DNA of 64,000 bases from Candidatus Heimdallarchaeum aukensis (GCA_021513695.1 CP084166.1:608001-672000); one strand, 5' to 3'; shown: positions 629-43,817, counted from the first letter of the stretch. Translations and numbers: made by a program. The notes: generated by a model not told the origin, from the letters alone.

Positions 629-1195
629 ATGCTCACATTTAAGATCCTTTTTATAGGCGATAATAGCGTAGGTAAAACTACTTTATTTAAAAAAATTGTT
701 CAAAATGAAAAAAATAAAGAAAAGATCCCTTCTCTAAAAGCAGAAATAGTAAAAGTTTATCGTACAATCCAAGGAGAAGAAGTAGCTTTTGAACTATATG
801 ATTTACCTGCGAGAGAACTTTTATCATCTCCTCAAAGAACAAAATGGTATTTAGGGACTGATGGAGCGTTTATAGTTTTTGACATTACAAAAGCAGAAAC
901 GTTCAGAAGAGTAACATTCTGGCTAGAACAATTAATAAATTATAACAGAAAAGGGAAGATACCTATAGTATTAGTAGGTAATAAAATAGATATGAGAGAC
1001 AATCCTAATGTGAGAAATAGGACACTAAACCCTATAGATGCTCAAGCTTTCTGTCTTCGACTAAATCGTACATCAGCTAGAGAAGGAATTAATAATGAAT
1101 TCTTCGAAGTCTCAGCAATCTCAGGGAAAGGTTTAACTCAATTACTTGATGCATTAGCTAAAAATATTTATAACCATCACAAAAAAATAAAATAG
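629..1195 (+). CDS. Divergent Ras-superfamily small GTPase with non-canonical G3 (DLPARE)
   Basis: Motifs: FIGDNSVGKTT (G1), GNKIDM (G4), VSAISG (G5). G3 reads YDLPARE instead of DxxGQ. The C-terminus is polybasic (HHKKIK). A GAGG-like motif lies about 10 nt upstream of the ATG. Confidence 0.85.
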   Translation: MLTFKILFIGDNSVGKTTLFKKIVQNEKNKEKIPSLKAEIVKVYRTIQGEEVAFELYDLPARELLSSPQRTKWYLGTDGAFIVFDITKAETFRRVTFWLEQLINYNRKGKIPIVLVGNKIDMRDNPNVRNRTLNPIDAQAFCLRLNRTSAREGINNEFFEVSAISGKGLTQLLDALAKNIYNHHKKIK

Positions 1196-22576: not shown

Positions 22577-24934
22577 ATGAAAAAACGAACGAACATTAAA
22601 AAAATAAATTTCATATTGTTCTTAATTTTTGTTCTTTTTGCAAGTTTTGCAATTGAACATGTTACAATAAAAGCTTCAGATAGCACCAACATAGGAAACC
22701 AGAAACATTTCGTTGATGACAACGCTGAGATCTTAATTATTTCAGATAATGATTTTGTTAAATATGGTTTTCCAGGGGATGGTTCTGTAGATAATCCATA
22801 TATTATCAGCAACCTAGATTTAAATACATCGAAAATGTTTGGTATATTTATTTCTAATGTAAGTTCATATTTTGTAATAGAAAACTGTTTTATTAGATCT
22901 TCTTATTACGGAATATCAGTTAGTGGTCTTGAAGAAAACAGAGCTACTATAAGAAACAATACCTTTTACAAAAGTATTGTAGCTGTTGAAATTAGCCATT
23001 CTCCAGGAATAACAATAATTAACAATAATTTCACTGAAAACAGAGATTATGGGATTTTTATTGAATATTCACCTGATTCCGTTTTGAACTCAAATTACTT
23101 TTTCAAGAATGGCGTGGGTTATTCCGGAAATGGTCTAATTATTAAAGAATCTGAAAATTCAACAATTACCAATAACTCTTTTGTTAGGGATGGTTTAGCT
23201 ATAGAGCCCTCAAATTTTGACATTAAATTGAGCTTATTTAATAATACAGTTAATAATAAACTAATTGGCTACTTCACTAAACAGAACAATATAGTAGTAG
23301 ATCAGTCTATTTATGGTCAAATACTTATCATTGAATGCTCAAATGTTTTTATTTCAAATCAAACGATTTCAGAAACTAATGTTGCTATTTCTGTTTATAA
23401 CTCAAATAGTATACTTATTTCAAATAATACTCTTATGAGCAATGATAAAGGGATTTTCTTATTTCAAACCTATGACTTTGCAATAGAGAGAAACTTTCTA
23501 GAAAATAATTCATTGAATGGATTAGAAATCAACGATTGTACTAAATTCAACATCGTAGATAATGAGATAATCAACAACAGGAAAGGGATTGAGTTATTTA
23601 TTGTCGATGGTTACTCAATTTCTAACATTAATAAGAACACAATTAAGGAGAATTTAGAAGAAGGACTTTCATTAAACACTGTAAATAATTTAAACATAAG
23701 CGAGAATTTCATATACAAAAATTTAGTAGGAATATATGCTTATTATTCTTCTAATGTCTATATAGTTGCTAATTCATTTGAAGTTAATTACCTTTATGCT
23801 ATAACTTTAATGGAAAGTGTAAACAACTTCTATATTTATTATAATCTCTTTGCAACCAATAATCTTGAAAACAAAAACGAATCCCAGTGTTTAGATAATG
23901 GAGTAAATAATCTATGGTACAATCCAGATACAGAAAAAGGAAATTATTGGACAGATCTTAATGACCAAAAGGTTTACTCAATAGGAGGTTCTGCAGGAAG
24001 TATTGATGCATATCCTATGGACCCATTTATAGTCGATTATCCTCCTTTATTTAATTGGCAACTTTACCTGATTCTTCCACTTACTTTAACAACCCTTTTA
24101 TCTGCAGGAGCTTATTTCTTGATCAAAAAAAGAGAAAGAAGAAATTCCAATCTTTCTGATTACAAGAAAGAGCTGAAAAAAGAGAAAGAGTGGGCTAGTG
24201 CTATTACAGAGAAAAAAGATAAAGTAGGTTCTCCAATTAGTAATCTAAACAAACAGATTAGAAAACATTTGGTAAAGAACTTTTCTAAATGGTTTATAGT
24301 AGGTTCAATTTCAGTACTTGTTATTAGCTCTGGATTTTTAGCTTACAAACTTTCGGTCTCTCCTGATAATACTAACCAAAACGGTGCAATGGTAAAATAT
24401 GCCCAAGCTCTTCAACAATCTATTCCTGAAGCTGTCTATATAGAGATTATAGGTAATGCTACATCGGCAATACATGAGAGTTTAATGGATGCACATATTT
24501 ATCGTATAAGCCCCTATCCAGATTTGACTTGGGAAGTTACAGCTAATATTCTCAAATTTGATGATGAAGGAAGAGCTTACCTTGAAGAAATTTCTTTCAC
24601 TCTCGACAGTTATGTAATTGATGAAATCGGACAAAATCTCTTCGAATCTCTCAACAACACCGTGATTTTAGGACATTACGGAGAAAAACCCTACAACGAT
24701 GAAGATACTTACAACATAAATATTAAATGGGGTTTAAGATTTTTCTTGGAAAATACTACAATAATTGAGTTGATTGTACTAGAGAATGGTCTTGTAGTAT
24801 ATGCAAAAGGCTACTGGGTAACTTTTTCTAATTATTCAACAAACATGATCGGAGCTTTAATTATTGGACCAGAATCTGCTTTTGACAATACTATTCGAAT
24901 TCTAAGAGAGATTTTTGAGGAAAATATAAATTAG
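22577..24934 (+). CDS. Secreted/membrane-anchored right-handed parallel beta-helix (PbH1/NosD-like) repeat protein
   Basis: N-terminal signal/anchor (INFILFLIFVLFASFAI). About 15 repeats of roughly 22 aa have N-x-[IF]-x-x-N and G-I-x-[IL] patterns (ISHSPGITIINNNFTENRDYGIFIEYS, etc.). There are many N-x-S/T sequons and two later TM segments that flank a basic loop. Confidence 0.8.
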   Translation: MKKRTNIKKINFILFLIFVLFASFAIEHVTIKASDSTNIGNQKHFVDDNAEILIISDNDFVKYGFPGDGSVDNPYIISNLDLNTSKMFGIFISNVSSYFVIENCFIRSSYYGISVSGLEENRATIRNNTFYKSIVAVEISHSPGITIINNNFTENRDYGIFIEYSPDSVLNSNYFFKNGVGYSGNGLIIKESENSTITNNSFVRDGLAIEPSNFDIKLSLFNNTVNNKLIGYFTKQNNIVVDQSIYGQILIIECSNVFISNQTISETNVAISVYNSNSILISNNTLMSNDKGIFLFQTYDFAIERNFLENNSLNGLEINDCTKFNIVDNEIINNRKGIELFIVDGYSISNINKNTIKENLEEGLSLNTVNNLNISENFIYKNLVGIYAYYSSNVYIVANSFEVNYLYAITLMESVNNFYIYYNLFATNNLENKNESQCLDNGVNNLWYNPDTEKGNYWTDLNDQKVYSIGGSAGSIDAYPMDPFIVDYPPLFNWQLYLILPLTLTTLLSAGAYFLIKKRERRNSNLSDYKKELKKEKEWASAITEKKDKVGSPISNLNKQIRKHLVKNFSKWFIVGSISVLVISSGFLAYKLSVSPDNTNQNGAMVKYAQALQQSIPEAVYIEIIGNATSAIHESLMDAHIYRISPYPDLTWEVTANILKFDDEGRAYLEEISFTLDSYVIDEIGQNLFESLNNTVILGHYGEKPYNDEDTYNINIKWGLRFFLENTTIIELIVLENGLVVYAKGYWVTFSNYSTNMIGALIIGPESAFDNTIRILREIFEENIN

Positions 24935-24946
24935 AAGGTGCGTATA

Positions 24947-25423
24947 ATGAATATTGTGGCAAAAGAGAAACAAGATATCATCGCTGAACTTAACGGAACA
25001 GCGCTACGTATTTTCCTTTTTCTTTTAAAAAACAATGAAATAGGAATACGAGACGCTCAAAGAAAATTAGGCCTTAAGAGTGCTAGCCATGTACAGTACC
25101 ATCTACAAAGATTTGAGCATTTAGGTATAGTGGAAAAGATGCCTAATAGCAGATATTGTCTTACAGAAAAATATTCTGAACTTCGAAGCATAAAACTAGG
25201 TCTTTTAACTGAAATATACATCTACAAAGGTGTTATAATTCCTTCTATTGGTTTTTTTTCTGGTGCTCTATTTACAACATTAATTATTTCTTTAATTTTT
25301 TACTTTCAAGTAAACAAGCTTTCAGGATTTCTAATTAGTATAATCGGAGTCTTTGCTACAGCAGTATATTTTCTAATCCAAGCTATTCAAATACTTAAAA
25401 ACTTTAGAGAGAATGAAAAATAA
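24947..25423 (+). CDS. Membrane-tethered winged-helix protein
   Basis: wHTH (ALRIFLFLLKNNEIGIRDAQRKLGLKSASHVQYHLQRFEHLGIVEK) followed by two TM helices. The ATG at 24947 is preferred; a GTG at 24938 is also possible. It lies immediately downstream of the beta-helix surface protein. Confidence 0.65.
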   Translation: MNIVAKEKQDIIAELNGTALRIFLFLLKNNEIGIRDAQRKLGLKSASHVQYHLQRFEHLGIVEKMPNSRYCLTEKYSELRSIKLGLLTEIYIYKGVIIPSIGFFSGALFTTLIISLIFYFQVNKLSGFLISIIGVFATAVYFLIQAIQILKNFRENEK

Positions 25424-25460
25424 CCACAATATTTGAATTGACCAAACGATAAAAAAATAC

Positions 25461-25490
25461 AAAAAAGAATGAGAAACTTTCTCTTTTTTT
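25461..25490. terminator. Putative bidirectional terminator between convergent genes
   Basis: aaaaaagaatGAGAAactTTCTCttttttt: a 5-bp stem (25471-25475 with 25479-25483) is flanked by an A-run on one side and a T7 run on the other. This gives an oligo-T signal on both strands. Confidence 0.35.
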
Positions 25491-25493
25491 GAA

Positions 25494-27419
25494 TTAATTA
25501 ATATATGTTAGAATGAAAGAATCTTGTATAAGATCTTCTATTTTCTTTTCTTCTATTTTGTCAAAAAACTTACCTGTTTTTGGAATGGAAGTTAGTTTAT
25601 GCCATAATTCCTCGAATTTTCCAATGTTATTAACAAAGTTATCTATCTTTTTATTGGCAGTGAAAGAAGAGCCTTTGAACACATAACAAAAGATTATTCC
25701 TTCCTTGTTTTTGAACGTCAAAAAGTAGTCATGATATTCTACTTGCTTGATTGAACCTTCTGTTGCTAAAACCTCTTTTAATATGTTATTTAAAGCAGAA
25801 AGGAATCCTGAAAATAGAATACTGTCATATTTCTCCTCACTAAAGTTATAACTGTAAAGTGGTATTCCATGTTCATTTAGAATAAGCAACATAACTGGAG
25901 TGTCTTTTTCTATTACTTCGAGTTCGTAGCTAACCCTTTGTATCATCTGCGAAACTAAAGTGTCAACTTGTGTTTTTTCTATTCTTTTCTTTATACTCAC
26001 ATCAGAATTAAGAATTGCTTTCCATTTATTATGTTCTCTTACAATTGAATCATATTCTAAACTTATTTTTTGAGCTAAATTGTCTAATCCTTGAGAAAAA
26101 GCTATCTCCTGCGCTTTTAATAAATCCTCTTGAGCTTCATCAAGATTTAGTTGAATTAGATTAATCTTTCCTTTTAACCAGTAAGCTTCTGCTAAGAGAG
26201 ACCTAGATATTTGCATTTCTGCAATTTTTAATAGCTGAATGTTTATATCCTTTAGTTCATCTATAATTTCGCTTTCATTAAAAATAGTAAGCTCTTCTAG
26301 CAATATTTCAGTAAGGTTTAACATCGCATGAATATTTATCTCATTGTAAATTTCATTCGTTCTAATAATAGAATGAAGAAGAGAGATAGCTTTCGCTTGT
26401 GAAACAAATCTTTTTCGCTCTTTTAATACACTTGCTTCTGTTAGTTTAGCATAAAAACTCAAAAACTTGTTTTTTTCCTTTCTAGATAATTTTTTTAATT
26501 CTTTCAAGTATTCCTGAGCTTTCGATATTTGCCCTAGTAAAATGTGTAACTTAGTCAAATAATAGGTGGATTCAGCTATAATATAGTTAAATTTAACTAA
26601 TTTTGCATAATTTATACTTTTATCGAAAAAATCTAAAGCTAGATTAAACTCTCCTTTACTGAAATAAACGATGCCTATATTATTGAAAACTTGTGAAATT
26701 CCAAAAATATTTTCTTTTTCTTGATAGTTAATTAAAGCATCGTTATATAGTTCAACCGCTTTATTTAGATTTCCTTTTAATCTATAAATCTCACCTATAG
26801 AAATTAAAGTATTGTTAATTATTTGCTTCGAGTTTAAAAATTCACCATAAACAAGACACTCTTCAAAACAAGCAAGGCTTTGATTTAGATTTCCTTTTTG
26901 GGCATTTATTTTTCCTTCTCTATATTTTAAAAAAGCATAAATTTTGGTCTCATTCTTCTCTTTAACTAATTGTAAAGATTTTTTTACTAAATTCAGTGCT
27001 CGTGGTAGATCTTTATAGATAACCAGTAAAGCTTGGCAGAGATTGAAAATGGCATTAACTTCATTTTTATCTTTCTTAATTACCTTTGATTTTGTTTTTT
27101 TGAAGTGTAATAAAATTTCTTCACTTTTTTTGTTTTGTGATAAAAGGAGAGAAAAAACCTCTATCAAATAATAGTAAACATAGAAATCATTAGCCATAAG
27201 TTCTTTCTCATTTTCAAGGTAACTTAAAAGTTGAAGGCCAAATACTTTGCAATCCTCTACTTTACCAAACTCATAAGCTGTTTCAACTTTGTGATTTAAT
27301 AAACTTCTTTTTTCAATTGAAGGTTGTTTTCTCTCTTCTTCATGGTTATTTATTTGGGTAATAATTTCAGAATATTTGGTTGAATCTAGAATTTTTTCGT
27401 TTTCTATGAAATCTATCAC
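25494..27419 (-). CDS. TPR repeat protein with C-terminal longin-like module (paralogue of 14018..16018)
   Basis: Multiple canonical TPRs (e.g. ISIGEIYRLKGNLNKAVELYNDALINY, NNIGIVYFSKGEFNLALDFFDKSINYA). The C-terminus is PVMLLILNEHGIPLYSYNF..DSILFSGFLSALNNILKEVL..GSIKQVEYHDYFLTFKNKEGIIFCYVF. Confidence 0.85.
   Translation of the reverse strand: MIDFIENEKILDSTKYSEIITQINNHEEERKQPSIEKRSLLNHKVETAYEFGKVEDCKVFGLQLLSYLENEKELMANDFYVYYYLIEVFSLLLSQNKKSEEILLHFKKTKSKVIKKDKNEVNAIFNLCQALLVIYKDLPRALNLVKKSLQLVKEKNETKIYAFLKYREGKINAQKGNLNQSLACFEECLVYGEFLNSKQIINNTLISIGEIYRLKGNLNKAVELYNDALINYQEKENIFGISQVFNNIGIVYFSKGEFNLALDFFDKSINYAKLVKFNYIIAESTYYLTKLHILLGQISKAQEYLKELKKLSRKEKNKFLSFYAKLTEASVLKERKRFVSQAKAISLLHSIIRTNEIYNEINIHAMLNLTEILLEELTIFNESEIIDELKDINIQLLKIAEMQISRSLLAEAYWLKGKINLIQLNLDEAQEDLLKAQEIAFSQGLDNLAQKISLEYDSIVREHNKWKAILNSDVSIKKRIEKTQVDTLVSQMIQRVSYELEVIEKDTPVMLLILNEHGIPLYSYNFSEEKYDSILFSGFLSALNNILKEVLATEGSIKQVEYHDYFLTFKNKEGIIFCYVFKGSSFTANKKIDNFVNNIGKFEELWHKLTSIPKTGKFFDKIEEKKIEDLIQDSFILTYIN
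25497..25904 (-). other. Longin-like domain, copy 2
   Basis: It aligns by eye with copy 1: hydrophobic strand + G-I-P-L-x-S/Y-x-x-F, then D-x-(I/L)-L-x-SG-(L/F)-(I/L)-SA-(I/L)-x-N, then G-x-(L/I)-(R/K)-x-(I/V)-x-(H/Y). Confidence 0.5.
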
Positions 27420-27679
27420 CTTAACAAAGAATTTAATAAATTCGCTTCCTTCAACTTAAAGAATATTTCTATTTACGTGCGTGATTTGTATTATAATGAA
27501 ATTATTGATTTTTAAACCTATAACTAAATTATTCTTAAGCTTCTACTTCTCTTTTTTTAATTTGAAAGATTTAAATAGATTCAAGTCACAAAATTACCAA
27601 TAAATTGGAAAAAATAAATAAATGCATCTAAAAATTGGATTTTATTCAGTTAAAAATAGAATTTTAAAGAGTTGATAAG

Positions 27680-30600
27680 ATGAAAAAGAAGACAATAACT
27701 TTGATCTTTATACTGTTAATAATGATTCAAGTATCTTCTTTATTTATAGAAACAGAAGCTTCAAATTACATATATACTCAACTTAAGTGGAGAAAAATAT
27801 CAAGCTACAATTATGGAGAAGCTTCTTTCTTTGACTATGATAAAGACGGAAAATTAGATGTTTTTTTTAAAACAGCAGAAGGCATAGAAATTTACAATCA
27901 TAAAGGAAATCTATTAAAGAAAATTCATGGTTATTTCCAATATACCCCCACAATTACAGACCTAGAAAAAGATGGAGATTTAGAGTTTATTACTCAAAAC
28001 TACTATGGAATAGAAATATACGATTCTACCGGACAATTAAAAGAACAGAACTTAACTTTATATAGTGCCTACGCGAGAATTGTGGTTGCAGACATTAACA
28101 ATGACGGGATACAAGAAATAATTTATCATTCCACAGGTGATATAATATGCTTCAACAATCAATTAGAAGAAATTTGGAGCTATAAATTTGAAAATCCAGA
28201 CTATTATGGAAGTATTTATGATCTCGTAGTTAATTCAGATGCAGATTCTGAAAAAGAAATTGTAGTTTATTATGACAACTCGATTTATCTATTTAATACA
28301 GATGGTGAAAAAAAATGGTCAAAATCCTTACCTTCTGAAGGAATTGTCGCTTATGATTTTAATGATGATGGTATAGATGAAATAATTGGAACCAAATCAT
28401 CAGATTACACAATTTACTCTTTAAACAGTCAAGATGGTTCTGAATTGTGGATTAATGAAATGGCTGTAAACTTAAACCCTTTGCCTATTGACCTTGATCA
28501 AGATGGAATTGTAGAATTAATAGCTCTTTCTACTGATAATGACAAGTCTGAATCTTATATTAATTATATCAATGGAAAAACAGGAGAAGTAGAAGAACAG
28601 GTAACTGTAGATCAAAGATTCTTTACTAATTCATATTACGAATTCTTTCCTGAAACTCCAGCTGTAGGAGATTTTGATGGTAATGGGGTGTTGGACCTTA
28701 TCTTTCTTGCTTTTTCATATGCTTATAGTGTTGCTACACTGATTTATTCTGCAGATGGGTATAGAATAGCAGAATTTGACGAGGGTTCACTAACAACTCC
28801 AACAATTGTTGACCTGGATGGTAATGGAAGAACAGAAATAATGATACGTGATTATTCAGGAATATTCTGCTATGAGGTTACTGGATCAACTTCTGGAAAA
28901 AATATCTGGTATAAAGAAAGAGGAAATATAGCTAATACAATGGTAGTAGATACAGATGGAGACTTGCTAGATGATATAAGCGAAGAATTTTATGGTTCAG
29001 ATAAAGGAAAAGAAGATACTGACGGTGATACCCTTTTAGACGGAATAGAGATAATTGGTTCTGGTTCTTCACCTATAAAACAAGACACTGATGGAGATGG
29101 TTTAACAGATGATGTTGAATATGAATTAGGTTTCAACCCAAGATTAAATGACTTAGATTTGGATTATGATGATGATAGTTTAACCAATTATGATGAAGTA
29201 TTTGTTTATTCAACAAATCCTATGTCTAATGATACAGATAACGATTTACTACTTGATAATGAAGAAATTAATACTTATGGAACGTCTCCAACAAACAACG
29301 ACACAGATGCAGATGGTGTTATTGATGGAGAAGAAGTACATACTTACGGAACATCACCATTAGATAATGATTCAGATGACGATGGAATGGAAGACGGATA
29401 TGAAGTCTTATACAACTTAGATCCTCTTGTAAATGATAGTTATGGAGATATTGACTCAGATGGTTTGTTAAATATTGAAGAGTTTACATACAATTCAAAC
29501 AGTTCAAATGTAGACACAGATAATGACACAATTTCAGATGGTGATGAAGTTCATACTTATGGAACGTCTCCAACAAACAATGATTCTGATGGAGATAATC
29601 TCACAGATAATGAAGAAATTTATACTTATGGAACGTCTCCAACAAACAACGACACAGACGCAGATATTATGTGGGATGGTTGGGAGATTGAATATGGATT
29701 TAATCCCTTAATCGACGATGGAGATGAAGATTTAGATTCTGACGGTCTTTCCAATGCTGAAGAATTTATTTATTCAACAGAGCCTAACAATACTGACTCA
29801 GATTCTGACCAACTCCTTGATGGAGAAGAAGTACATACTTATGGAACAGACCCTGCTAAAATTGATAGTGACGAGGATGAGCTTACTGATTATGAAGAAG
29901 TTATAGTTTATACAACAAATCCTGTGTCTAACGATACTGATAATGACTTAATGGGTGATTATTATGAGGTTAATCATGGTTTAAACCCCCTTGTAAACGA
30001 TACTTTAGGCGATCTTGACAATGATACTCTAACAAATTATGAAGAATTTTTACTTGGTACTTTACCTAATAACAATGATACTGATGGAGATGGAATGAGT
30101 GATGGTTTTGAGTATCAATATGGACTAATTTTAACTGACAATGATTCTTCATTGGACAAGGATAAGGATGGTTTATCTAACCTTGACGAATTTTTACATA
30201 ATACCAACCCTCTCTCTAATGATACTGATGGAGATGGAATGTTTGATGGTTTTGAAGTGCAATATAACCTTAACCCAAATTTAAATGATTCTGCAGGAGA
30301 CCCTGATGCTGATGGAATATCAAATATTGATGAAATGAAATATGGTTCATCACCAATTAGCTCTGATACAGACAGTGACCGTCTAACCGATCCTGAAGAG
30401 ATATTCATCTATCACTCTAATCCTGCAATAAAAGATACAGATGGAGATGGTTTAGAAGATGGAGAAGAAGTACTTGATTTTGGTACAAGCCCAACTAACG
30501 AGGATACAGACGGGGACACTCTTAGTGACTATGTAGAGATTTATGTTTTCCTCACTGACCCAACAGACCCTGATACAGATAACGATGGAATGAATGATGG

Positions 30601-31624
30601 AGAAGAAATAGAAATAGGAAAAGATCCGCTTACTAAAAACTACTACACACCACTTTCTAAACTTCTACTTATATTGCCTATTGTTGGAGGAATAGTCCTC
30701 TTTGGTGGCTTAATATATGGAGCTATGATTTTTTCTAAGAAAATTAAAGAGAGAAAGCGTAAAGAGATAGTAGAAAAAGAGATTCTGTTGCTTAAATCTG
30801 AGCATCTAAATTTAGATGACAGGATAAACATTCTAGCAAAAAAAGAATCTATTTTTACTGATAAAATCACTTTTCGCTCTTTGGTTGATGTGACTAAACT
30901 CTATTTCAACTTTCTTGCAAAATTTGACGATAAATACACTTTAATTACTAAATTCAAAGAAGTTGGTAATCTTCAGGAATGGAATGAAGTGAAGGAGAAA
31001 GCTTTTTCATCCTTTGAACGGCTATTAAATACAATAAAAGACAATCTCCATTCCTTTGACATAAACGACATAATAAAGAATCAGTATCCTTCACTAATAA
31101 ATCTTGAAAAGAAAGGCGAACTAACAGCAAAAGAACTCTTACAAGTTCATTCTGATGGAAAAGATTTACACCTCTATGTTGAAGAATTCAAAAAATATCT
31201 AAAGATTTTACTAAGAAGATTGAACGCTTTAGAATCTCTCTTTTCAACTAAAGATGAGCTTTTGGATATTGTTGCTTCAAGTTCAATTATTACTGCTCTA
31301 AAAGAAAAAGATTCATTAATTACTCAACTAGAGAGGAACGAGATCAAATATGTTCGAGAAAAAATAAATGCAGAAAATCATTGTATTTACTGTGGTATTC
31401 AACTACATGATGATGCTAAAACATGTTCAAACTGCCAACGCACTCTTCCTTCTTGCCCTATTTGTAAAAATACTTTCAGATTCTTTGATGAAGTCTATAC
31501 TTGTCCCGAATGCTTTTCAAAGATTCATAAAGATGAACTGGAGATTTGGTTAGGAGATAAAGGAACTTGTCCTAAATGTAACAAATCTATTACTTTATAC
31601 AACTTAGATGTTGAAATAATCTAA
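27680..31624 (+). CDS. Giant type-I membrane protein: FG-GAP/integrin-alpha-like propeller + thrombospondin-type-3-like Ca-binding repeats + TM + coiled-coil + Cys-rich zinc module
   Basis: Signal peptide (ITLIFILLIMIQVSS). Seven or more D-x-[DN]-x-DG-x-x-[DE] FG-GAP-type loops (DYDKDGKLDV, DLEKDGDLEF, DINNDGIQEI, DFNDDGIDEI, DLDQDGIVEL, DFDGNGVLDL, DLDGNGRTEI). About 25 D-[TS]-D-x-D-x-[LMI]-x-D-x-x-E repeats. TM is LLLILPIVGGIVLFGGLIYGAMIF. The C-terminal zinc module is listed separately. Confidence 0.9.
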   Translation: MKKKTITLIFILLIMIQVSSLFIETEASNYIYTQLKWRKISSYNYGEASFFDYDKDGKLDVFFKTAEGIEIYNHKGNLLKKIHGYFQYTPTITDLEKDGDLEFITQNYYGIEIYDSTGQLKEQNLTLYSAYARIVVADINNDGIQEIIYHSTGDIICFNNQLEEIWSYKFENPDYYGSIYDLVVNSDADSEKEIVVYYDNSIYLFNTDGEKKWSKSLPSEGIVAYDFNDDGIDEIIGTKSSDYTIYSLNSQDGSELWINEMAVNLNPLPIDLDQDGIVELIALSTDNDKSESYINYINGKTGEVEEQVTVDQRFFTNSYYEFFPETPAVGDFDGNGVLDLIFLAFSYAYSVATLIYSADGYRIAEFDEGSLTTPTIVDLDGNGRTEIMIRDYSGIFCYEVTGSTSGKNIWYKERGNIANTMVVDTDGDLLDDISEEFYGSDKGKEDTDGDTLLDGIEIIGSGSSPIKQDTDGDGLTDDVEYELGFNPRLNDLDLDYDDDSLTNYDEVFVYSTNPMSNDTDNDLLLDNEEINTYGTSPTNNDTDADGVIDGEEVHTYGTSPLDNDSDDDGMEDGYEVLYNLDPLVNDSYGDIDSDGLLNIEEFTYNSNSSNVDTDNDTISDGDEVHTYGTSPTNNDSDGDNLTDNEEIYTYGTSPTNNDTDADIMWDGWEIEYGFNPLIDDGDEDLDSDGLSNAEEFIYSTEPNNTDSDSDQLLDGEEVHTYGTDPAKIDSDEDELTDYEEVIVYTTNPVSNDTDNDLMGDYYEVNHGLNPLVNDTLGDLDNDTLTNYEEFLLGTLPNNNDTDGDGMSDGFEYQYGLILTDNDSSLDKDKDGLSNLDEFLHNTNPLSNDTDGDGMFDGFEVQYNLNPNLNDSAGDPDADGISNIDEMKYGSSPISSDTDSDRLTDPEEIFIYHSNPAIKDTDGDGLEDGEEVLDFGTSPTNEDTDGDTLSDYVEIYVFLTDPTDPDTDNDGMNDGEEIEIGKDPLTKNYYTPLSKLLLILPIVGGIVLFGGLIYGAMIFSKKIKERKRKEIVEKEILLLKSEHLNLDDRINILAKKESIFTDKITFRSLVDVTKLYFNFLAKFDDKYTLITKFKEVGNLQEWNEVKEKAFSSFERLLNTIKDNLHSFDINDIIKNQYPSLINLEKKGELTAKELLQVHSDGKDLHLYVEEFKKYLKILLRRLNALESLFSTKDELLDIVASSSIITALKEKDSLITQLERNEIKYVREKINAENHCIYCGIQLHDDAKTCSNCQRTLPSCPICKNTFRFFDEVYTCPECFSKIHKDELEIWLGDKGTCPKCNKSITLYNLDVEII
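27800..28930 (+). other. FG-GAP (integrin-alpha-like) beta-propeller region
   Basis: Periodic Ca-binding loops as listed for the parent CDS. Boundaries are approximate. Confidence 0.6.
28949..30640 (+). repeat. Thrombospondin type 3-like calcium-binding repeat array (coding)
   Basis: Repeated DTDGDGLxDGxE / NDTDNDxLxDxxE units. It includes three 28-nt identical DNA copies at 29271, 29553 and 29622. Confidence 0.8.
31382..31600 (+). other. Cytoplasmic Cys-rich zinc-binding module (zinc ribbon + RING-like element)
   Basis: CIYC-x11-CSNC is followed by CPIC-x12-CPEC-x4-H-x13-CPKC. The segment IHKDELEIWLGDKGTCPKC resembles the C-terminal half of RING-H2 fingers (H..C/x..WL....CPxC). Confidence 0.5.
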
Positions 31625-31722
31625 CTTTTTCTTTTCTTTTATAGGTTTTATTACTTTCAGTTACCTCTCTCTCTGTTACTGAAAATAGGTAAATATTTAA
31701 CCTTAAAAAACTAATAACTCTT

Positions 31723-32745
31723 ATGCCTATCAAATTCGATTTTTCTGCTTATTATGCGTTTAAAGAATTAATAAAAAAGAAAGTAGGAAAAGAAAAAATC
31801 AACAAAGAGTTAGAAGAATTATTTTCGATAAAAGGATATGAGCTATTATTTGAACGAGAGTATAACAAAGAATTTTTCTCAAATGTATTTAAATTTGTCC
31901 TATATCCTGAATTAGCTGAAGTTACAGAGAAAAATCAACTAAAAAGATATGAAAGGTACATTAATCATTTTAATAATATTATTTCTATTCAAGAACAAAT
32001 CGATGAAGGAATTGAGAGCATAAAAAAACAAACTAGTAAATTTCAATCTAACATCACAAATAGAGCTTTCTCTCTTCTTCCATTTGTTAAAGAACAAGAT
32101 ATTTCTGTTTTCATCACTGTTTTTGATATTGATGCAAGAGGAGTAAAAGGTAATAACATTGTAATTGACCCTGTTTTTTGTTCTCATACAGAAAGCTTTG
32201 CAGCAATTTTAGCTCATGAATTACACCATGTTTACAGAAACAAACTTCTTTGCTTTGATTCATCAAAAATAAAAGATGAAGATAAAGAACTTATATGGTT
32301 ATTGGATCAACTTCAAGGAGAAGGAGTAGCAGACCAAATAGACAAAGAATATTTTATTTTTTCAAAAGAAAAAACCGTTTTTCCTAATGAATATGTGACA
32401 CAGTTTACACATGCTTTTAACTCAGCACGAGAAACAATTTCTTTAATCAATAATTATATCGAAAAAGTTTCTACAGCAGATAACTCTAACGAAAAGAGAG
32501 AGATATTGAAAGAAATGCGTGGTAAAATTCCTTTAGGAGGACATCCTACAGGTTTTTACATGACAATGATTATTATTAAAGAAATGCTTTATGATAATCT
32601 AATCAAAGATGTAGGTAACCCTTTTGCATTTATCAGGCTTTATAACCAAGCAGCTTCTAGAGATAGAGAACCTTTGCCTATTTTTTCTAACAAGTCTCTA
32701 GAATACCTTAACAAGCTAGAAGAAGAATACTGCATAAAAACTTGA
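31723..32745 (+). CDS. Putative zinc metallopeptidase-like protein (HExxH)
   Basis: There is a single HELHH motif (AAILAHELHHVYRN), with a downstream acidic QGEGVAD as a possible third ligand. Nothing else is recognisable. No signal peptide. Confidence 0.4.
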   Translation: MPIKFDFSAYYAFKELIKKKVGKEKINKELEELFSIKGYELLFEREYNKEFFSNVFKFVLYPELAEVTEKNQLKRYERYINHFNNIISIQEQIDEGIESIKKQTSKFQSNITNRAFSLLPFVKEQDISVFITVFDIDARGVKGNNIVIDPVFCSHTESFAAILAHELHHVYRNKLLCFDSSKIKDEDKELIWLLDQLQGEGVADQIDKEYFIFSKEKTVFPNEYVTQFTHAFNSARETISLINNYIEKVSTADNSNEKREILKEMRGKIPLGGHPTGFYMTMIIIKEMLYDNLIKDVGNPFAFIRLYNQAASRDREPLPIFSNKSLEYLNKLEEEYCIKT

Positions 32746-32825
32746 ACTATCGATATTTTCTTTTTTATTATACAATAAAGAGTAAAAAGAATAGGTTTTT
32801 ATTTTGCTATTGTTTTTTATTTTCA

Positions 32826-33389
32826 ATGAGTTCTAAAGACACAAATGATGTTTTATCAAAGCTTGTTGATAATTTTTTAAGTAAAGTTGGAGATGAGAAT
32901 CCACTTGATTTAGTAAACTATTTACTCAACAATGGTAAAAAAGAAGGTTCATTTAACTTAGATCTAGCAAGAAACTTCTTACATATACTAGAGAAACACT
33001 CTAAAAAAGATATGAATAGCGCTTGGAAATTGGCGCTAAAACTTGCCCAATTCCCTTTTGAAAAAATACCAGATGAGAGTAAAGATAATTATGATTTCAT
33101 CATTTTCTTGGGTACATGGAGTTTGGGTTTGATTGCAGGGTTAAATCCAGCTTACTTAGAATTGGCTACTCCTATAATTCAATCTCTAGCCAATGACCCA
33201 AAAACAAAAAAGGCAATCAAACAAGCAAAAAAGGGTATAAATCGTGCAATTGCTAATACAAAAGAAGAAAAAGAGAAAGTACTTCTGAAAACAAAAGAAA
33301 TTATTGACAAATTAAGTTTTCAGGAAAAAATAGAAGATAAAACAAATAAGTTTATTTCTAGATTTAAGAAAAAAGAAAAGAAAAAATAA
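32826..33389 (+). CDS. Hypothetical helical protein with K-rich tail
   Basis: I moved the ORF start to the ATG at 32826; the track's upstream extension is F/Y/C-rich junk that overlaps the previous gene's end. No recognisable motifs. Confidence 0.5.
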   Translation: MSSKDTNDVLSKLVDNFLSKVGDENPLDLVNYLLNNGKKEGSFNLDLARNFLHILEKHSKKDMNSAWKLALKLAQFPFEKIPDESKDNYDFIIFLGTWSLGLIAGLNPAYLELATPIIQSLANDPKTKKAIKQAKKGINRAIANTKEEKEKVLLKTKEIIDKLSFQEKIEDKTNKFISRFKKKEKKK

Positions 33390-33433
33390 TTGAGAATAGA
33401 TAATTGAATAACTTAAAAACTAGTTATACTATA

Positions 33434-36400
33434 TCATTTTTTTATTTCTAAATAGCCTAAATTGTAAAGAATTTGGAGATAAGATAGAGTTTTTCCTCTT
33501 TCTATGTCATCTTCAATTTTATTAATTAACTCTTCAATGAGGAAAAAGTCATTTTTATTCAGATATTTTTCTAGTTGTTTTTCTAAATACTTGCTTTGCT
33601 TAATTTTTTTAGAATCTCTAACTTTTATGGGGTTCTTCATCCATAAGTAAAGAAATGAGTTACATTTTTCTATAATTTCCTCCTTTTTACCATTAAATAC
33701 AGATGGATCCCCATTCCAACCTTCCGCATAGCTGTGAAAATTAGCTTCAAACCAAAGAATAATTGATTGAATGCTTAAATCTATGTCTAAAGTAATATCA
33801 GTTTCTGAAAACACATAAATCACAAAATGATCAGTTCGTGCGCTAGTCACTACAAAATTTTGATATTGAATCTTTCTTATATCTCCGGAACCTTTCTCTG
33901 TTAATTCATTTCCTATTGAAGAAATTGCTTGAAAGAAGCCTGATATAAGTGTTGAATCTCTTTGGAAGTCTGAACCCAAATCCACTTCAAAAATAGAAAT
34001 GGATGTTTCTTGATGGACAATTATTATCTTTTTTATTGAGTTAATCTTTAAATAATCATTATATGTAGAAATGTAAAATTCATTTGCTTTTCTTTTCCTA
34101 ATAACAAGCAAATAGAAAATTAGGAAAGCAATAGAAGAGGTTAGAATTGGTAAAATTATAAATAATAACATTTTTACTAAAAATAAATATGGATCTTTCC
34201 CATTTGGTGAATTAGGATTTGTAGGAGAGGGGGGAGATGTAGGAGTAACAGGATTAACAATTAGTTTAAAACCTAAAGTGATTTCAGAAGAGGAGGTATT
34301 AAGTTTAAAGTTTTCTTTTGTAATTTCTAAATCTAGAGAAAAGTTCCCTGATTGTATTCCTAATTTTGAGATATTTAAGGAAATATTTGTGTATTCATCA
34401 GTATTGATTACATTATAATATTCTGATAAGACTGTAATTCCATTCATTTTAATCTTTATATTTTCGCTAAATATAGGAATGATATTTTTATCATTGTCAG
34501 TTTCATTTGTAATCCTAAATGAAATATTTGCTATCAAATTCTGTTCTAATACAAACTCATTTTCTAAAGGATATAAGAGAGAGAAACCCATTTTGAAAAA
34601 GATTCTTAAGTAAATTGTCTTTGATTGATTATGATAATAAGAACTATTAAAAATAATGTCTATTGACTGAATTCCTACAGGAGAACTCAGAGAAACATTG
34701 GTGAAATAATAGTCTCCTAAATAAGAAAATTCTCCATTCGTCTTCCAGCTTGTATTAAACAGAATCTTTTCATTACTGATATATGTGAAAGAATAATTTG
34801 AATTCAGATTAGAAAGAGAGTAAATCCAACTTCTTATTGATAATTTCTCTCCACTAAATCGTTCCACAAGTGTTTCATTTGTCCAATTATCAGAAAAAGA
34901 TTCTACTTGCCATATAGTTTCAAGTCTTGCATAAGCTTTAACCTCTACACTTTTAGTTAGAAAACCAACTTCAGTCCCATTTTTCCAGTAAACAAAGATA
35001 GTCCATTCTCCAGGTGTATCAGAATTTTCAAATGAAGGATCGAGAGTAATATTTGTATAGAATTGATTATTCGATGAATCTAAACTACCAATAGTTGTAT
35101 AGCTAGAATTGTCAATATATTTTAATAAAGAAGAGATATTTGCTTTTATTGGGCTAATTTCTCCGTTTGGATTAAATAATGTAAAATTGATTATTCCAGA
35201 GCTTTCATTGTTTAACAAACTAGTGGAAAGATCTAGTTTAGAACCTTCATAACCATAAAAGTAATTATCTCCTTTTATCCAATATCCGAGATTGATTTCA
35301 TTTTGATCACTAGAAAAAACAGTAAGGCTGGTAACATAGTTAGGACTAGTTGTTTGTAAAGTAAAGTTACAAGCTTCTAAAGAATTATTAAGTTGAAGTC
35401 TATAGATATTATTTAATTTTAAGGTTGAGAGAGAGAAAGTTTTATTCATAACAGTTCGAGCATCATTAACAGACCAATCTTCTTGTGAAAAAATATCGAT
35501 TACTCTCTCGAATAGGAAGTAGGAAGTCACATTTGCTGAAGGCAGTTCCCAAAATATTTCCCAGTTAATTTCTCTTTCAGTAGTTTCATTACTTACACTA
35601 TAGAAAGAAATAGCATCCATGTCTCTGTAAAAAAGATAAGTGTTATTTATCTCTAAAATAATTGAAGTATTTGCTGTGACTACTTGAACACCAGAATTAG
35701 AAAGAGGGCTATTAAAAGATAAAATTTGTTCTCCATTAACTTGTAAATATAGTTCAAGAGGATTATTGAATAAAAGGTTATTTCCATTTTCGTCTGTTGG
35801 ACATATATCCACTATCAAAGACAAATCAAAAGAAGCTACAAATGGTTGCCAACCTCCGCTTTCTTCAAAATAAAAAGTTTTTCCATCATCAGAAGCCTTT
35901 CTTCCTCTCCAGATGAAAGAACTATCGCTACTATTGTCTATAATTGATAAATTAGCAACTAAAAAATATTGGCCTTTCTCTAATACTGTGGGGTTAAATT
36001 CATAATATGAAAAACTTCCTCCTAATAAGTTGTAATTTGATTCATTAAAAGGATTAGACAAAGCTTCAGTAAGAATATGATTCATATCAGGATATCCTGT
36101 CTGATTAGCCTTAACAACAAATAGATCAAGAGAATTATTTCCTAATCCTGTACCATAATCTACTTCTAAACTTATATTTATTCCATAAAACATTGCGTGA
36201 TCCCAAAAAATTTCAAATTCTTGAGCAAGCCCTATATAATCGAAATAAGAGATTGTACCATCAGTTTTCAAGTCGTCTCCCTCTATTACGTAGAAGTCTC
36301 TAATCCCTTCTATTTTTTCAATCATTAGTGTTAGGTCTTCATTAGGAAAATCGGATATTGGTTCGATAACAAAACTATTAGATCGTGAATTAGCTAAATC

Positions 36401-36667
36401 TAAAGTAAGATTCTCATATTGAGAAGTGATTATTGTGTCATAAACTGACAAATTTTTGCCTTTATCTGAAATAGAATTTATCTGAATATTATTTATAAAG
36501 ACAAGGTTTTCATCTATGTTTGTGGGTGAATAGTCTGTTTTGGGAGTAAAATTATTTTCTTTCATCTTTGAATTGAAAAAGTTTCCTTTTAAGGTAGAAA
36601 AAGGTAAAAGTATGGCAATAATAAAGAACACAATAAATAATACTTTTTTCCTTTTTACACCTTGCAA
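33434..36667 (-). CDS. Giant surface protein (signal anchor, ~800-aa N-glycosylation-sequon-rich ectodomain, Pro-rich stalk, TM) with cytoplasmic longin-like module
   Basis: N-terminal anchor VLFIVFFIIAILLPF. Dozens of N-x-S/T sequons. Stalk PVTPTSPPSPTNPNSPNG. TM LLFIILPILTSSIAFLIFYLLVI followed by RKRK (positive-inside). The cytoplasmic tail is IIIVHQETSISIFEVDL..STLISGFFQAISSIGNEL..IRKIQYQNFVVTSARTDHFVIYVF. Confidence 0.85.
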   Translation of the reverse strand: MQGVKRKKVLFIVFFIIAILLPFSTLKGNFFNSKMKENNFTPKTDYSPTNIDENLVFINNIQINSISDKGKNLSVYDTIITSQYENLTLDLANSRSNSFVIEPISDFPNEDLTLMIEKIEGIRDFYVIEGDDLKTDGTISYFDYIGLAQEFEIFWDHAMFYGINISLEVDYGTGLGNNSLDLFVVKANQTGYPDMNHILTEALSNPFNESNYNLLGGSFSYYEFNPTVLEKGQYFLVANLSIIDNSSDSSFIWRGRKASDDGKTFYFEESGGWQPFVASFDLSLIVDICPTDENGNNLLFNNPLELYLQVNGEQILSFNSPLSNSGVQVVTANTSIILEINNTYLFYRDMDAISFYSVSNETTEREINWEIFWELPSANVTSYFLFERVIDIFSQEDWSVNDARTVMNKTFSLSTLKLNNIYRLQLNNSLEACNFTLQTTSPNYVTSLTVFSSDQNEINLGYWIKGDNYFYGYEGSKLDLSTSLLNNESSGIINFTLFNPNGEISPIKANISSLLKYIDNSSYTTIGSLDSSNNQFYTNITLDPSFENSDTPGEWTIFVYWKNGTEVGFLTKSVEVKAYARLETIWQVESFSDNWTNETLVERFSGEKLSIRSWIYSLSNLNSNYSFTYISNEKILFNTSWKTNGEFSYLGDYYFTNVSLSSPVGIQSIDIIFNSSYYHNQSKTIYLRIFFKMGFSLLYPLENEFVLEQNLIANISFRITNETDNDKNIIPIFSENIKIKMNGITVLSEYYNVINTDEYTNISLNISKLGIQSGNFSLDLEITKENFKLNTSSSEITLGFKLIVNPVTPTSPPSPTNPNSPNGKDPYLFLVKMLLFIILPILTSSIAFLIFYLLVIRKRKANEFYISTYNDYLKINSIKKIIIVHQETSISIFEVDLGSDFQRDSTLISGFFQAISSIGNELTEKGSGDIRKIQYQNFVVTSARTDHFVIYVFSETDITLDIDLSIQSIILWFEANFHSYAEGWNGDPSVFNGKKEEIIEKCNSFLYLWMKNPIKVRDSKKIKQSKYLEKQLEKYLNKNDFFLIEELINKIEDDIERGKTLSYLQILYNLGYLEIKK
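33719..34033 (-). other. Longin-like domain, copy 3 (cytoplasmic tail of surface protein)
   Basis: It has the same strand-strand-helix(SGF-x-x-AI)-strand-strand-strand layout as copies 1 and 2. Confidence 0.45.
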
Positions 36668-36811: not shown

Positions 36812-37975
36812 TCACAATAACCTTTCTTTTAATCTAAAAATAGCTTCTTCTAATGTCTCAATTTTTTGCGAGAAAGAAAATCTAACATAGTTACAGACTA
36901 TATTTTCATCATTTTCGGTGTGATAAAAACTTGAGCCTGGAACTACAGCAACACCTTTGTTTTTTACTAAGAAATCAGCAAAATCTGTGTCTCTCGTTTT
37001 AAAATTACTAATATCTGAAAACATATAATATGCGCCTTTAGGAATAATGGTTTTGAAACCTAGCTCATTTAATGATTTACTCAAGTAGTCTCTATTTTTT
37101 TGATATCTTTTTACTAGTTGGGAGAAATAGTCATCTTTAAGATCAAATGCTTTAATAGCAGCTTCTTGTAAAATTGAAGGAGCACAAACAGTCAGATAAT
37201 CGTGAACTTTTCTTATTCCTTTCATTAGTTTCTTTTCTGCAGCTACATAACCTATTCTCCATCCTGTAATTGAAAAAGTCTTACTAAAACCACTTATTGT
37301 TATTGTTCTTTCCTCCATCCCGGGAATACTTCCGAGACTTATGTGTTTTTCACCATCGTAGATGATATATTCGTAAATTTCATCTGTAATGGCGATAATA
37401 TCGTTATCTATACAAATGTCTGCAATAAGTTTCATTTCTTTAGAAGAAAATACTTTTCCTGAAGGATTATGGGGAGAATTGACAATTATAGCTTTAGTTT
37501 TTTTAGTTATTTCTTCTTTTAGTTTCTCTTCATCTATCGAAAAATCTTCTTGTTTCAATTGAACATATTTAGGTACTCCTTCTGCAATGTGTGTAATAGG
37601 AGTATAATTTTCGTACCAAGGTTCAAAAATAATCACTTCATCTGCAGGATTAAGAATAGAAAGAATACTACTACTTATTCCTTCACTAGCCCCACAACAA
37701 ACTGTTATTTCATCTTCGGGATCAACCTCTATTCCATTGTATCCTCTCAATTTTTCACTGATTTTCTCTCTTAAATTATAATTACCATAAGTTATAGAAT
37801 ACTGATGTTCTTTTTTTTCAATAGCTTCTATTATACCTTCAATAAGCTCTTGAGGGGGTTCAAAATCAGGCATGCCTTGAGAGAGGTTAATTGCTTGGTT
37901 GACTATAGCCTTTCTAGTCATTTCACGGATAGTGCTCTCTTCAAAACCTTCAAGTTTTTTGGCAAATTTAAGCAT
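36812..37975 (-). CDS. Aminotransferase class I/II (KAT/YbdL methionine-aminotransferase-like subfamily)
   Basis: INLSQGMPDFEPP (subfamily N-terminal motif), NSPHNPSG, ITDEIYE, SGFSKTFSITGWRIGY (PLP lysine), and RFSF near the C-terminus. Confidence 0.88.
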   Translation of the reverse strand: MLKFAKKLEGFEESTIREMTRKAIVNQAINLSQGMPDFEPPQELIEGIIEAIEKKEHQYSITYGNYNLREKISEKLRGYNGIEVDPEDEITVCCGASEGISSSILSILNPADEVIIFEPWYENYTPITHIAEGVPKYVQLKQEDFSIDEEKLKEEITKKTKAIIVNSPHNPSGKVFSSKEMKLIADICIDNDIIAITDEIYEYIIYDGEKHISLGSIPGMEERTITISGFSKTFSITGWRIGYVAAEKKLMKGIRKVHDYLTVCAPSILQEAAIKAFDLKDDYFSQLVKRYQKNRDYLSKSLNELGFKTIIPKGAYYMFSDISNFKTRDTDFADFLVKNKGVAVVPGSSFYHTENDENIVCNYVRFSFSQKIETLEEAIFRLKERLL

Positions 37976-43321: not shown

Positions 43322-43817
43322 TTATCTAAAACTCCTACCTATTAGTTTATCTTTATTATATAGCTCTATTTCTTCTTTGACAGTAAGTGGGCTTTCTTGT
43401 GATAAATCTTGTTTATTTATAAGAATTAACAATGGTTTTCTGCTATCCACTATTAAAAACATGTAATCCAAAGAAAAAACGAGAAACTTCAAACGCATCA
43501 CTTTCAGATGAAGGTTTTATTGTTCCATCAATAACATAAATAACTGCATCGGCTTGAGTTACTCCTAAAGCCAACAGACTTTCCCGATAAAGTTCTTGTC
43601 CTCCTACATCGATAGCTGATAACTCCCAATCAGCAATTTTTATAGGTTGTTACCTAATATCTATCCCAAGAGTAGTACGTGGATCATCTAACACTGATTT
43701 TCCCGTCTCTAACTATCTAACAAGAGTAGTTTTTCCCGCACCAAAAGCTCATAATAATACAATATTTGCTTCTTTAGAAATATTTTTCTTTAAAAAAATG
43801 CTTCCTAACCAACTCAT
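43322..43817 (-). pseudogene. Arf/Sar-family small GTPase pseudogene (3 in-frame stops + at least 1 frameshift)
   Basis: Hand translation of the minus strand gives MSWLGSIFLKKNISKEANIVLL*AFGAGKTTLVR*LETGKSVLDDPRTTLGIDIR*QPIKIADWELSAIDVGGQELYRESLLALGVTQADAVIYVIDG. After a frame change near a T6 run it continues ..VDSRKPLLILINKQDLSQESPLTVKEEIELYNKDKLIGRSFR*. P-loop GAGKTT, Arf-type DVGGQ and NKQD are present. Stops are TGA (43749-43751), TAG (43713-43715) and TAA (43650-43652). Confidence 0.8.

Follow-up and report, generated by a model that had tools for sequence, protein, structure and literature searches.

Between positions 22,577 and 36,667 of a 64-kb window of Candidatus Heimdallarchaeum aukensis DNA, an Asgard archaeon and congener of Candidatus Heimdallarchaeum endolithica, seven genes encode a PbH1 beta-helix surface protein, a small protein with two transmembrane (TM) segments and a putative winged helix-turn-helix (wHTH), a soluble tetratricopeptide repeat (TPR) protein with a predicted longin domain, an FG-GAP/TSP3 surface protein, a putative zinc peptidase, a small protein, and a surface protein in which an ectodomain, a TM segment and a predicted longin domain follow one another (ectodomain-TM-longin protein). 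The question raised by this locus is whether the seven genes form an island that works as one unit, as proposed in the initial annotation, or are neighbours with separate functions. The window denotes the whole 64,000-nucleotide stretch that was analysed (CP084166.1:608001-672000), and the interval denotes the 14 kb that carry the seven genes. The results show that the genes of the interval, which encode surface and membrane-associated proteins, are transcribed separately and inherited through ordinary chromosomal synteny; they constitute neither an operon nor a mobile island, nor a multi-gene system that is conserved as such. They also show that the one real molecular thread of the interval is a longin-fold domain unmatched by Pfam above threshold. 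In the explanation that we favor, for which the chances appear evenly balanced, this ordinary neighbourhood contains an anchored longin tail that would pair with a soluble longin protein to form a platform. The 14-kb interval is itself ordinary and is not to be handled as one system; the lead lies at the level of the longin family.

Gene order and transcription units of the interval

Each of the seven open reading frames (ORFs) listed in the initial annotation was found in its place, and almost all domain assignments made there were borne out, as were the signal-peptide and TM topologies. The ORFs are contiguous, with zero housekeeping genes between them, in agreement with the little housekeeping content described there. 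The genes are distributed over both strands in at least four transcription units (Table 1), and the co-oriented, tightly spaced arrangement of an operon is not observed, since the interval contains two convergent strand switches and one divergent pair, formed by the TPR-longin and FG-GAP genes across a 260-bp spacer. Co-transcription is probable for the PbH1 gene and the gene of 161 codons directly downstream of it, because the latter begins 3-12 nt beyond the PbH1 stop codon. The aminotransferase gene directly upstream of the ectodomain-TM-longin gene is also found in the congeneric locus L002 and is missing at the equivalent position of the Candidatus Heimdallarchaeum endolithica PR6 genome (L007 9742-10001), which reveals a minor rearrangement where the interval ends.

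Conservation of the gene set was assessed within the genus and, outside it, in L003, L004, L006 and the genome loci L007-L036 (n=30, among which L007 is PR6), found in a genome scan with a 7-sequence alignment; these are Heimdall metagenome-assembled genomes (MAGs), save six weak (21-27% identity) matches in Thorarchaeota, Promethearchaeota and unclassified archaea. The whole gene order is kept in just two congeneric genomes, L002 and PR6 (L007; complete genome CP084167.1), in which the flanking genes for a ketopantoate reductase (ApbA), a GHMP kinase, an Eco57I-type methylase and a membrane protein are colinear at similar identities. Gene order within the genus thus reflects general colinearity and is uninformative about a functional association. 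At the more distant ectodomain-TM-longin orthologue loci (29-36% identity), PR6 excepted, the genes for the FG-GAP protein, the DUF5700 peptidase, the small protein and the wHTH-2TM protein are absent nearby, and the neighbours are other genes. Beta-helix genes occur within 10 kb in L003/L010, L006, L008, L013 and L037, and TSP3 protein genes within 10 kb in L006, in both cases noted as occurrences only, and no co-occurrence beyond general colinearity was found. Accordingly, the proposal of one unit did not withstand the comparison, as the genes are co-conserved only within the genus Heimdallarchaeum and are arranged in several units.

A mobile or horizontally acquired origin was likewise considered and rejected. 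The stretch contains no tRNA gene, no Rfam family match and no flanking repeats, its only long repeats being the internal TSP3 units of the FG-GAP protein; GC content is ~30% across the whole window and ranges from 0.26 to 0.33 within the interval versus 0.25 to 0.35 window-wide, and congeners are colinear. With a composition equal to that of its flanks the interval is not a genomic island, and the term can be kept for its gene content only.

In the reading put forward initially, the seven genes would constitute one sensing and adhesion module, in which the receptors signal through the TPR-longin protein as adaptor to small GTPases while the wHTH-2TM protein provides the transcriptional output. 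We regard this as very unlikely. The contiguity of the genes, the order retained in two congeneric genomes, the conserved cytoplasmic tails, the longin fold supported by modelling, the divergence of the TPR-longin and FG-GAP genes from a single spacer and the beta-helix or TSP3 surface proteins encoded at most 10 kb from ectodomain-TM-longin homologues (L003/L010, L006, L008, L013) are what such a module would display. However, it has to accommodate a split into at least four transcription units that use both strands, a synteny within the genus that extends equally to the flanks, distant orthologue loci devoid of four of the genes, wHTH-2TM relatives confined to the genus level, a short and poorly conserved cytoplasmic loop in the PbH1 protein, and ~0.5 Mb of related loci without a GTPase gene.

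Table 1. Positions of genes, domains, transcription units and comparison loci (window coordinates unless a locus is named)
Feature	Position	Strand	Size	Family match or remark
PbH1/NosD surface protein	22577-24934	+	785 aa	Pfam Beta_helix E 2.5e-31, NosD E 5.6e-30
wHTH-2TM protein	24938-25423	+	161 aa	TM segments 99-117 and 132-150 (hydropathy)
TPR-longin protein, soluble	25494-27419	-	641 aa	Pfam TPR_12, TPR_MalT; longin domain 25605-25916
FG-GAP single-pass surface protein	27680-31624	+	1314 aa	Pfam FG-GAP_3, TSP3_bac above threshold
DUF5700 putative zinc peptidase	31723-32745	+	340 aa	Pfam PF18958, E 5e-42
Small protein	32826-33389	+	~187 aa	no family; alternative TTG start 32742
Ectodomain-TM-longin protein, single-pass	33434-36667	-	1077 aa	no Pfam match; TM 34109-34171, longin 33713-34039, winged-helix-like C-terminus 33437-33607
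Second TPR + longin protein	14018-16018	+	666 aa	Pfam TPR; profile match E 2e-30
Unit 1: PbH1, wHTH-2TM		+		gap 3-12 nt
Unit 2: TPR-longin		-		convergent with unit 1 (25423/25494), divergent from unit 3 (27419/27680)
Unit 3: FG-GAP, possibly also DUF5700 and 187-aa protein		+		gaps 98 nt and ~80 nt
Unit 4: 1077-aa gene		-		convergent with unit 3 (33389/33434); downstream of aminotransferase gene
Ras-family GTPases, tandem	2-547 and 629-1195	+		intact
Protein with C-terminal TPR repeats	11313-13883	+	856 aa	
MFS transporter with PhoU_div domain	16102-18084	-		
Zinc-ribbon protein	20183-22399	-	738 aa	
Class I/II aminotransferase	36812-37975	-		
Decayed Ras/Arf-like GTPase	43322-43720	-		
Tandem array	L003/L010 9188-20751			
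Tandem array	L008 8218-14018			
Tandem array	L012 6616-14423			
Tandem array	L028 1963-9451			
Tandem array	L019 5070-9405			
Tandem array	L025 841-4163			

The longin-fold domain and its Asgard family

The thread that does run through the interval starts at the inner end of the 1077-aa protein. Following a signal peptide, an all-beta region of tandem immunoglobulin (Ig)-like sandwiches (residues 60-805) and a Pro/Ser/Thr linker, this protein has a TM segment at residues 833-853, a juxtamembrane helix, a longin domain at residues 877-985 and a winged-helix-like (wH) C-terminus at residues 1021-1077. Hydropathy reproduces the topologies initially given for the three large proteins, namely a signal peptide and one or two TM segments, and N-glycosylation sequons number 1.9-4.4 per 100 aa in the predicted ectodomains versus 0-0.3 in the cytoplasmic tails. 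The protein is 99% identical to the GenBank protein P0001 of 'Candidatus Heimdallarchaeaceae archaeon' and has a 66%-identical orthologue in PR6. The GenBank model (1043 aa) begins at M35 and thereby loses the hydrophobic signal peptide (36565-36667, minus strand), which is retained in the TTG-initiated ORF and in the orthologues P0002, P0015 and P0020. A full-length model displays a mean predicted local distance difference test score (pLDDT) of 79 overall and 85-90 over residues 60-805, and its ectodomain was matched by Foldseek to the Ig arrays of titin and NCAM, the Bacillus S-layer protein Sap, the adhesin SiiE and macroglobulin domains. As modelled, the ectodomain is generic, adhesin- or S-layer-like, and a specific ligand is not inferable from it.

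The tail of the protein was modelled with AlphaFold2 from a 38-sequence alignment of residues 852-1077, resulting in a model with a pLDDT of 90.8 and a predicted template modelling score of 0.86, in which the juxtamembrane helix is followed by a beta-beta-alpha-beta-beta-beta-alpha-alpha domain and a small winged-helix-like module. Structural matches to this tail are delta-COP, AP-4 mu, AP-5 sigma, Mon1, Ccz1, Sec22b and VAMP7, with Roadblock/MglB structures ranking slightly below the longin matches, and an independent Foldseek search retrieved AP2 sigma, Trs23/Bet5, MON1A-CCZ1 and Fuzzy/Inturned. The predicted domain thus has the ~120-140-residue fold that superposes on solved longin domains. 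At the sequence level no curated longin model is above threshold for either of the two regions proposed as longin, their only match being to Fuz_longin_1 on the TPR protein (E 0.004, 17.7 bits). Like two further Fuz_longin_1 matches in the analysis (E 0.07, 13.8 bits; E 0.002, 18.8 bits), it lies under the cut-off of 26.1 bits, and Pfam gave nothing above threshold for stand-alone family members either. A profile search of the PDB returned nothing significant, only noise (haemagglutinin coiled coils, E >= 0.1), and for the C-terminal winged helix the evidence from sequence is limited to weak matches to RPA32 winged-helix structures in the PDB (E ~1). The name longin, given to these regions in the initial annotation, is therefore right at the level of predicted structure and fails the test of curated sequence models.

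In the soluble 641-aa protein a MalT-like TPR array (residues ~130-442) precedes a C-terminal domain (residues 502-605) to which the sub-threshold Fuz_longin_1 match with E 0.004 corresponds. Alignments of the TPR-type and TM-type domains without shared sequences were found by hhalign to be homologous (98.2% probability, E 3e-14), and the fold assignment consequently extends to the TPR proteins. A third copy in the window forms the C-terminus of a 666-aa TPR protein, whose C-terminal domain is paralogous to that of the 641-aa protein (phmmer E 1.8e-10); since this gene sits outside the interval, the longin theme is not limited to the seven genes. Just upstream of it, a gene encodes an 856-aa protein with C-terminal TPR repeats. 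In comparison with PR6, the longin domain of the 1077-aa protein is 93% identical versus 64% for the ectodomain, and that of the 641-aa protein is 91% identical; the longin domains are the most conserved parts of both proteins.

An exhaustive HMMER search with a six-sequence alignment of the domain as query retrieved 1,700 cluster representatives at E <= 1e-3, 188 of them at E <= 1e-10. The family was seen in Heimdall, Loki and Hel lineages, including Lokiarchaeum ossiferum, other Lokiarchaeota and Helarchaeota, and the domain occurs behind the single TM segment of big ectodomains, behind TPR arrays, on other scaffolds and alone. The TM segment of the long members is typically located 30-60 residues upstream of the longin domain. 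Fusions to PCI, to DDRGK/UFL1-like winged helices, to BBS2/BBS7-like propellers, to a DEAD-box helicase and to a prenyltransferase toroid were found (P0073, P0078, P0106, P0119, P0131), and others involve polytopic membrane domains and zinc fingers. Longin and roadblock proteins have been sorted into ~130 asCOGs, and many Asgard-specific multidomain fusions are on record that include longin with TPR, Ig-like and HTH/PCI domains (Liu et al. bioRxiv 10.1101/2020.10.19.343400; Tran et al. PMC10933270; Makarova et al. PMC11188069), and the diverse fusions of the family fit these surveys of Asgard-specific longin fusions (bioRxiv 10.1101/2020.10.19.343400; PMC11188069).

Proposed pairing of anchored and soluble longin domains

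Indirect evidence of a partnership comes from other Heimdall genomes. A six-frame profile search revealed a recurring module in which a soluble longin-wH gene of ~220 codons immediately precedes, in the same orientation, an ectodomain-TM-longin-wH gene, in six different MAGs (L010/L003, L008, L012, L028, L019, L025). Modules of this kind often form arrays (Table 1) of two or three tandem ectodomain-TM-longin-wH paralogues interleaved with soluble longin-wH genes, the latter of two types, with either a canonical or a divergent, degenerate alpha1 helix motif. Eukaryotic longin domains form pairs, among them Bet5/Trs23 in TRAPP, Mon1/Ccz1, and AP sigma/mu. By analogy to these, we hypothesize that the anchored longin-wH tail forms a dimer with a soluble longin protein, which in Heimdallarchaeum would plausibly be a TPR-longin protein. 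Situated beneath the surface protein, the resulting pair may serve as a platform for recruiting a further partner, for which a small GTPase is, again by analogy, the obvious candidate; the TPR array would act as scaffold.

With regard to a TPR-longin partner, TPR+longin genes lie ~6 kb from ectodomain-TM-longin genes in three lineages, namely the genus of the window, L013 and a clade of L004 and L018, which represent a single lineage because of their colinearity throughout. A 640-aa TPR protein of L004 was considered as the orthologue of the TPR-longin protein of the window and was ruled out by BLAST, the profile search identifying it as another TPR+longin protein.

Several observations weigh against the pairing that we propose. 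The proximity of TPR-longin genes could be due to chance or to residual synteny: the longin family is multi-copy, with two TPR-longin proteins within the 64-kb window, the genes that separate the TPR-longin and ectodomain-TM-longin genes are housekeeping genes that differ by lineage, and at three other TPR-longin orthologue loci (37-40% identity; L005/L039, L037, L038) no ectodomain-TM-longin gene is within reach. Given this, and the colinearity of L004 and L018, that proximity is only suggestive. Moreover, the longin assignment depends on predicted structure, the Pfam longin matches being sub-threshold, the pairing of TM-anchored with TPR-fused domains would follow purely from analogy, and tblastn searches with both Ras-like proteins of the window as queries (E <= 0.1), in which a positive control worked, detected no Ras-superfamily GTPase gene at a distance of up to 10 kb from any of ~35 related loci, 494 kb of sequence in all.

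The same observations feed the explanation by coincidence, according to which Asgard genomes are simply rich in large surface proteins and longin proteins, and the two longin proteins of the interval do not interact. We consider it rather unlikely, even though a large multi-copy family with three copies in the window, one of them outside the interval, TPR-longin loci such as L038 and L039 without an ectodomain-TM-longin gene, and intervening genes that vary by lineage are all as it would predict. Against it stand the six MAGs in which a soluble and an anchored longin-wH gene directly adjoin on one strand, far above the expectation from copy number, and the vicinity of TPR+longin genes in three lineages. 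The adjacency in the six MAGs makes pairing within the family a real theme, though not one shown for the locus of the window.

For a GTPase as the further partner, genomic context gives no support, as no linked GTPase genes were found; at the same time this absence is weak evidence, because roadblock and longin genes are reported to be generally missing from the operons of Asgard GTPases (PMC10933270). What eukaryotic longin domains do would be the sole basis of a link to small GTPases. The window does contain two intact tandem Ras-family GTPase genes with 28% mutual identity, located 21 kb from the interval. Placed 6.6 kb past the interval, a decayed gene for a small Ras/Arf-like GTPase is contained in the 0.8-kb gap between the genes for the Eco57I-like methylase and a 576-aa membrane protein; it retains the motifs GAGKTT, DVGGQE and NKQD and has two in-frame stop codons and a frameshift, and its PR6 orthologue (L007 2947-3273) is a truncated ORF of 108 aa.

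Some eukaryotic longins (SNAREs, AP sigma/mu) work without a role as guanine nucleotide exchange factor (GEF) or GTPase-activating protein (summarised in PMC10933270). The longin-wH tails might likewise act independently of GTPases, by oligomerising or anchoring a surface lattice in which the soluble longin-wH proteins are cross-linkers, by a tie to cytoskeleton, ESCRT or UFM1-type systems, or as sorting or quality-control tags, an option that we hold to be unlikely. It would agree with the precedent of the eukaryotic proteins just mentioned, with the resemblance of the ectodomain to the Ig arrays of S-layer (Sap), adhesin (SiiE) and cell-adhesion molecules, with the tandem paralogue arrays and their soluble partners, as lattice components would show, with a repertoire of fusions (PCI, DDRGK/UFL1-like winged helices, BBS-like propellers, helicase) in which GTPase domains do not appear, and with the lack of GTPase genes near related loci. 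On the other hand, the closest structural matches of the tail include the GEF longins Bet5/Trs23 and Mon1/Ccz1, and the missing linkage says little, considering that Asgard GTPases are generally unlinked to longin and roadblock operons (PMC10933270).

A bolder version of the platform hypothesis would see in the family Asgard-wide single-pass receptors, in which the longin-wH tail and a soluble longin form a TRAPP- or Mon1-Ccz1-like platform that recruits or regulates GTPases below an Ig-like ectodomain, the locus of the window being one instance with a TPR-longin partner. This version is quite improbable; if true, it would mean that a prokaryotic pathway from receptor to longin platform to GTPase is older than eukaryotic trafficking and adaptor logic. 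Longin and roadblock proteins are, together with small GTPases, much-discussed 'eukaryotic signature' proteins of Asgard archaea with a largely obscure cellular role. In the present family large extracellular proteins carry a longin domain directly at their inner end, and genes for soluble longin partners are often found beside theirs. This yields concrete pairs, in which the tail would be combined with either the TPR-longin protein or a stand-alone longin-wH protein, and with them one can ask whether Asgard longins already served as membrane-proximal platforms.

Neighbouring proteins and comparison with known systems

The PbH1/wHTH-2TM pair, the FG-GAP protein and the DUF5700 peptidase most likely have independent functions at the cell surface or periphery and are merely neighbours. 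The FG-GAP protein is predicted to consist of a signal peptide, a beta-propeller (residues ~28-420), TSP3 repeats (424-970) and a TM segment (995-1013), followed on the cytoplasmic side by a ~210-aa helical segment and a C-terminal double zinc ribbon/RING-like module, for which the DZR and RING (zf-RING_2) matches are sub-threshold. With an FG-GAP_3 score of 43.1 bits (cut-off 26.9), DxDxDG loops at residues 52, 138, 226 and 271, and ~24 TSP3-type DxDxD calcium-binding repeats, its sequence has the features of an FG-GAP propeller adhesin, that is, a putative extracellular propeller with calcium-binding loops. The cytoplasmic tail is 75-82% identical to that of the PR6 orthologue, and the combination of TM segment, coiled segment and zinc-ribbon/RING-like tail was seen only in the congeneric orthologues L002 and L007; a word-indexed search with the tail gave zero matches and is uninformative, as even orthologues already known at 75% identity escaped it. 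Apart from at least four double zinc ribbons, one of which resembles that in the FG-GAP tail, no domain is recognisable in the 738-aa protein, whose gene diverges from the PbH1 gene with 177 bp between them. Located 98 nt past the FG-GAP gene on the same strand, the DUF5700 gene encodes a protein with a HELHH motif at residue 165 and, by hydropathy, neither signal peptide nor TM segment; its family match and motif bear out the earlier description as an HExxH protein. The small protein, without a Pfam or NCBIfam match, probably starts at M29 (32826), the position from which its orthologues align, and is 88% identical to that of L002.

The PbH1 protein has a signal peptide, a right-handed beta-helix (residues ~75-490), two TM segments by hydropathy (498-516 and 572-590) and a ~195-aa C-terminal domain without family match that the topology places outside the cell, so that its cytoplasmic part is just the 55-aa basic loop between the TM segments. 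In comparison with PR6 this loop is 55% identical and the C-terminal domain 80%, with only TM1 (37%) below the loop. The non-trivial cytoplasmic part initially ascribed to each large protein is consequently present in the 1077-aa and FG-GAP proteins and reduced to this loop in the PbH1 protein, and the suspicion that these parts might be unconserved linkers is unfounded for the two former and roughly holds for the latter. The position of the 161-aa protein directly downstream and its two C-terminal TM segments were confirmed, but the putative N-terminal wHTH finds only sub-threshold matches (LexA_DNA_bind E 1.5e-4, 21.9 bits versus a cut-off of 23.7; HTH_28 18.3 bits versus 25; TIGR00498 16.9 bits), and a word-indexed homologue search retrieved three homologues, all at the genus level. 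Elsewhere in the window, an MFS transporter with a C-terminal PhoU_div (DUF47) domain constitutes an unusual fusion.

Among known systems, the FG-GAP protein is reminiscent of Myxococcus CglD and MtsD and of integrin alpha, through an FG-GAP propeller combined with long TSP3 calcium-binding arrays. The likeness concerns the TSP3 regions of CglD and MtsD and is at the level of repeats only, both the CglD match (NCBIfam E 1e-27, 96 bits versus a cut-off of 400) and the MtsD match (NCBIfam E 5e-20, 71 bits versus a cut-off of 800) being far sub-threshold.

The arrangement of ectodomain, TM, longin and wH and its pairing with soluble longin-wH genes have no description in the open-access text searched, and an earlier description is possible. 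Described Asgard longin and roadblock proteins (including PDB 8yqg, 9jue and 7yh1) belong to the same superfamily and the same phylum as the domain of the window. The eukaryotic platforms used for comparison are TRAPP Bet5/Trs23 (TRAPPC1/C4), Mon1-Ccz1, Fuzzy-Inturned, the N-terminal domains of AP/COPI sigma, mu, zeta and delta, and the SNAREs Sec22b, VAMP7 and Ykt6. In contrast to these, the present domain shares 5-20% sequence identity with eukaryotic longins, has no Pfam longin model at threshold, and is located C-terminal to a signal peptide, an extracellular region of ~800 aa and a TM segment, with a winged-helix-like module after it; this arrangement is absent from the longin proteins that it matched. 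In the signal recognition particle receptor, the TM anchor belongs to the GTPase SR-beta, the longin protein (SR alpha SRX) being soluble, whereas here the predicted longin domain is itself anchored.

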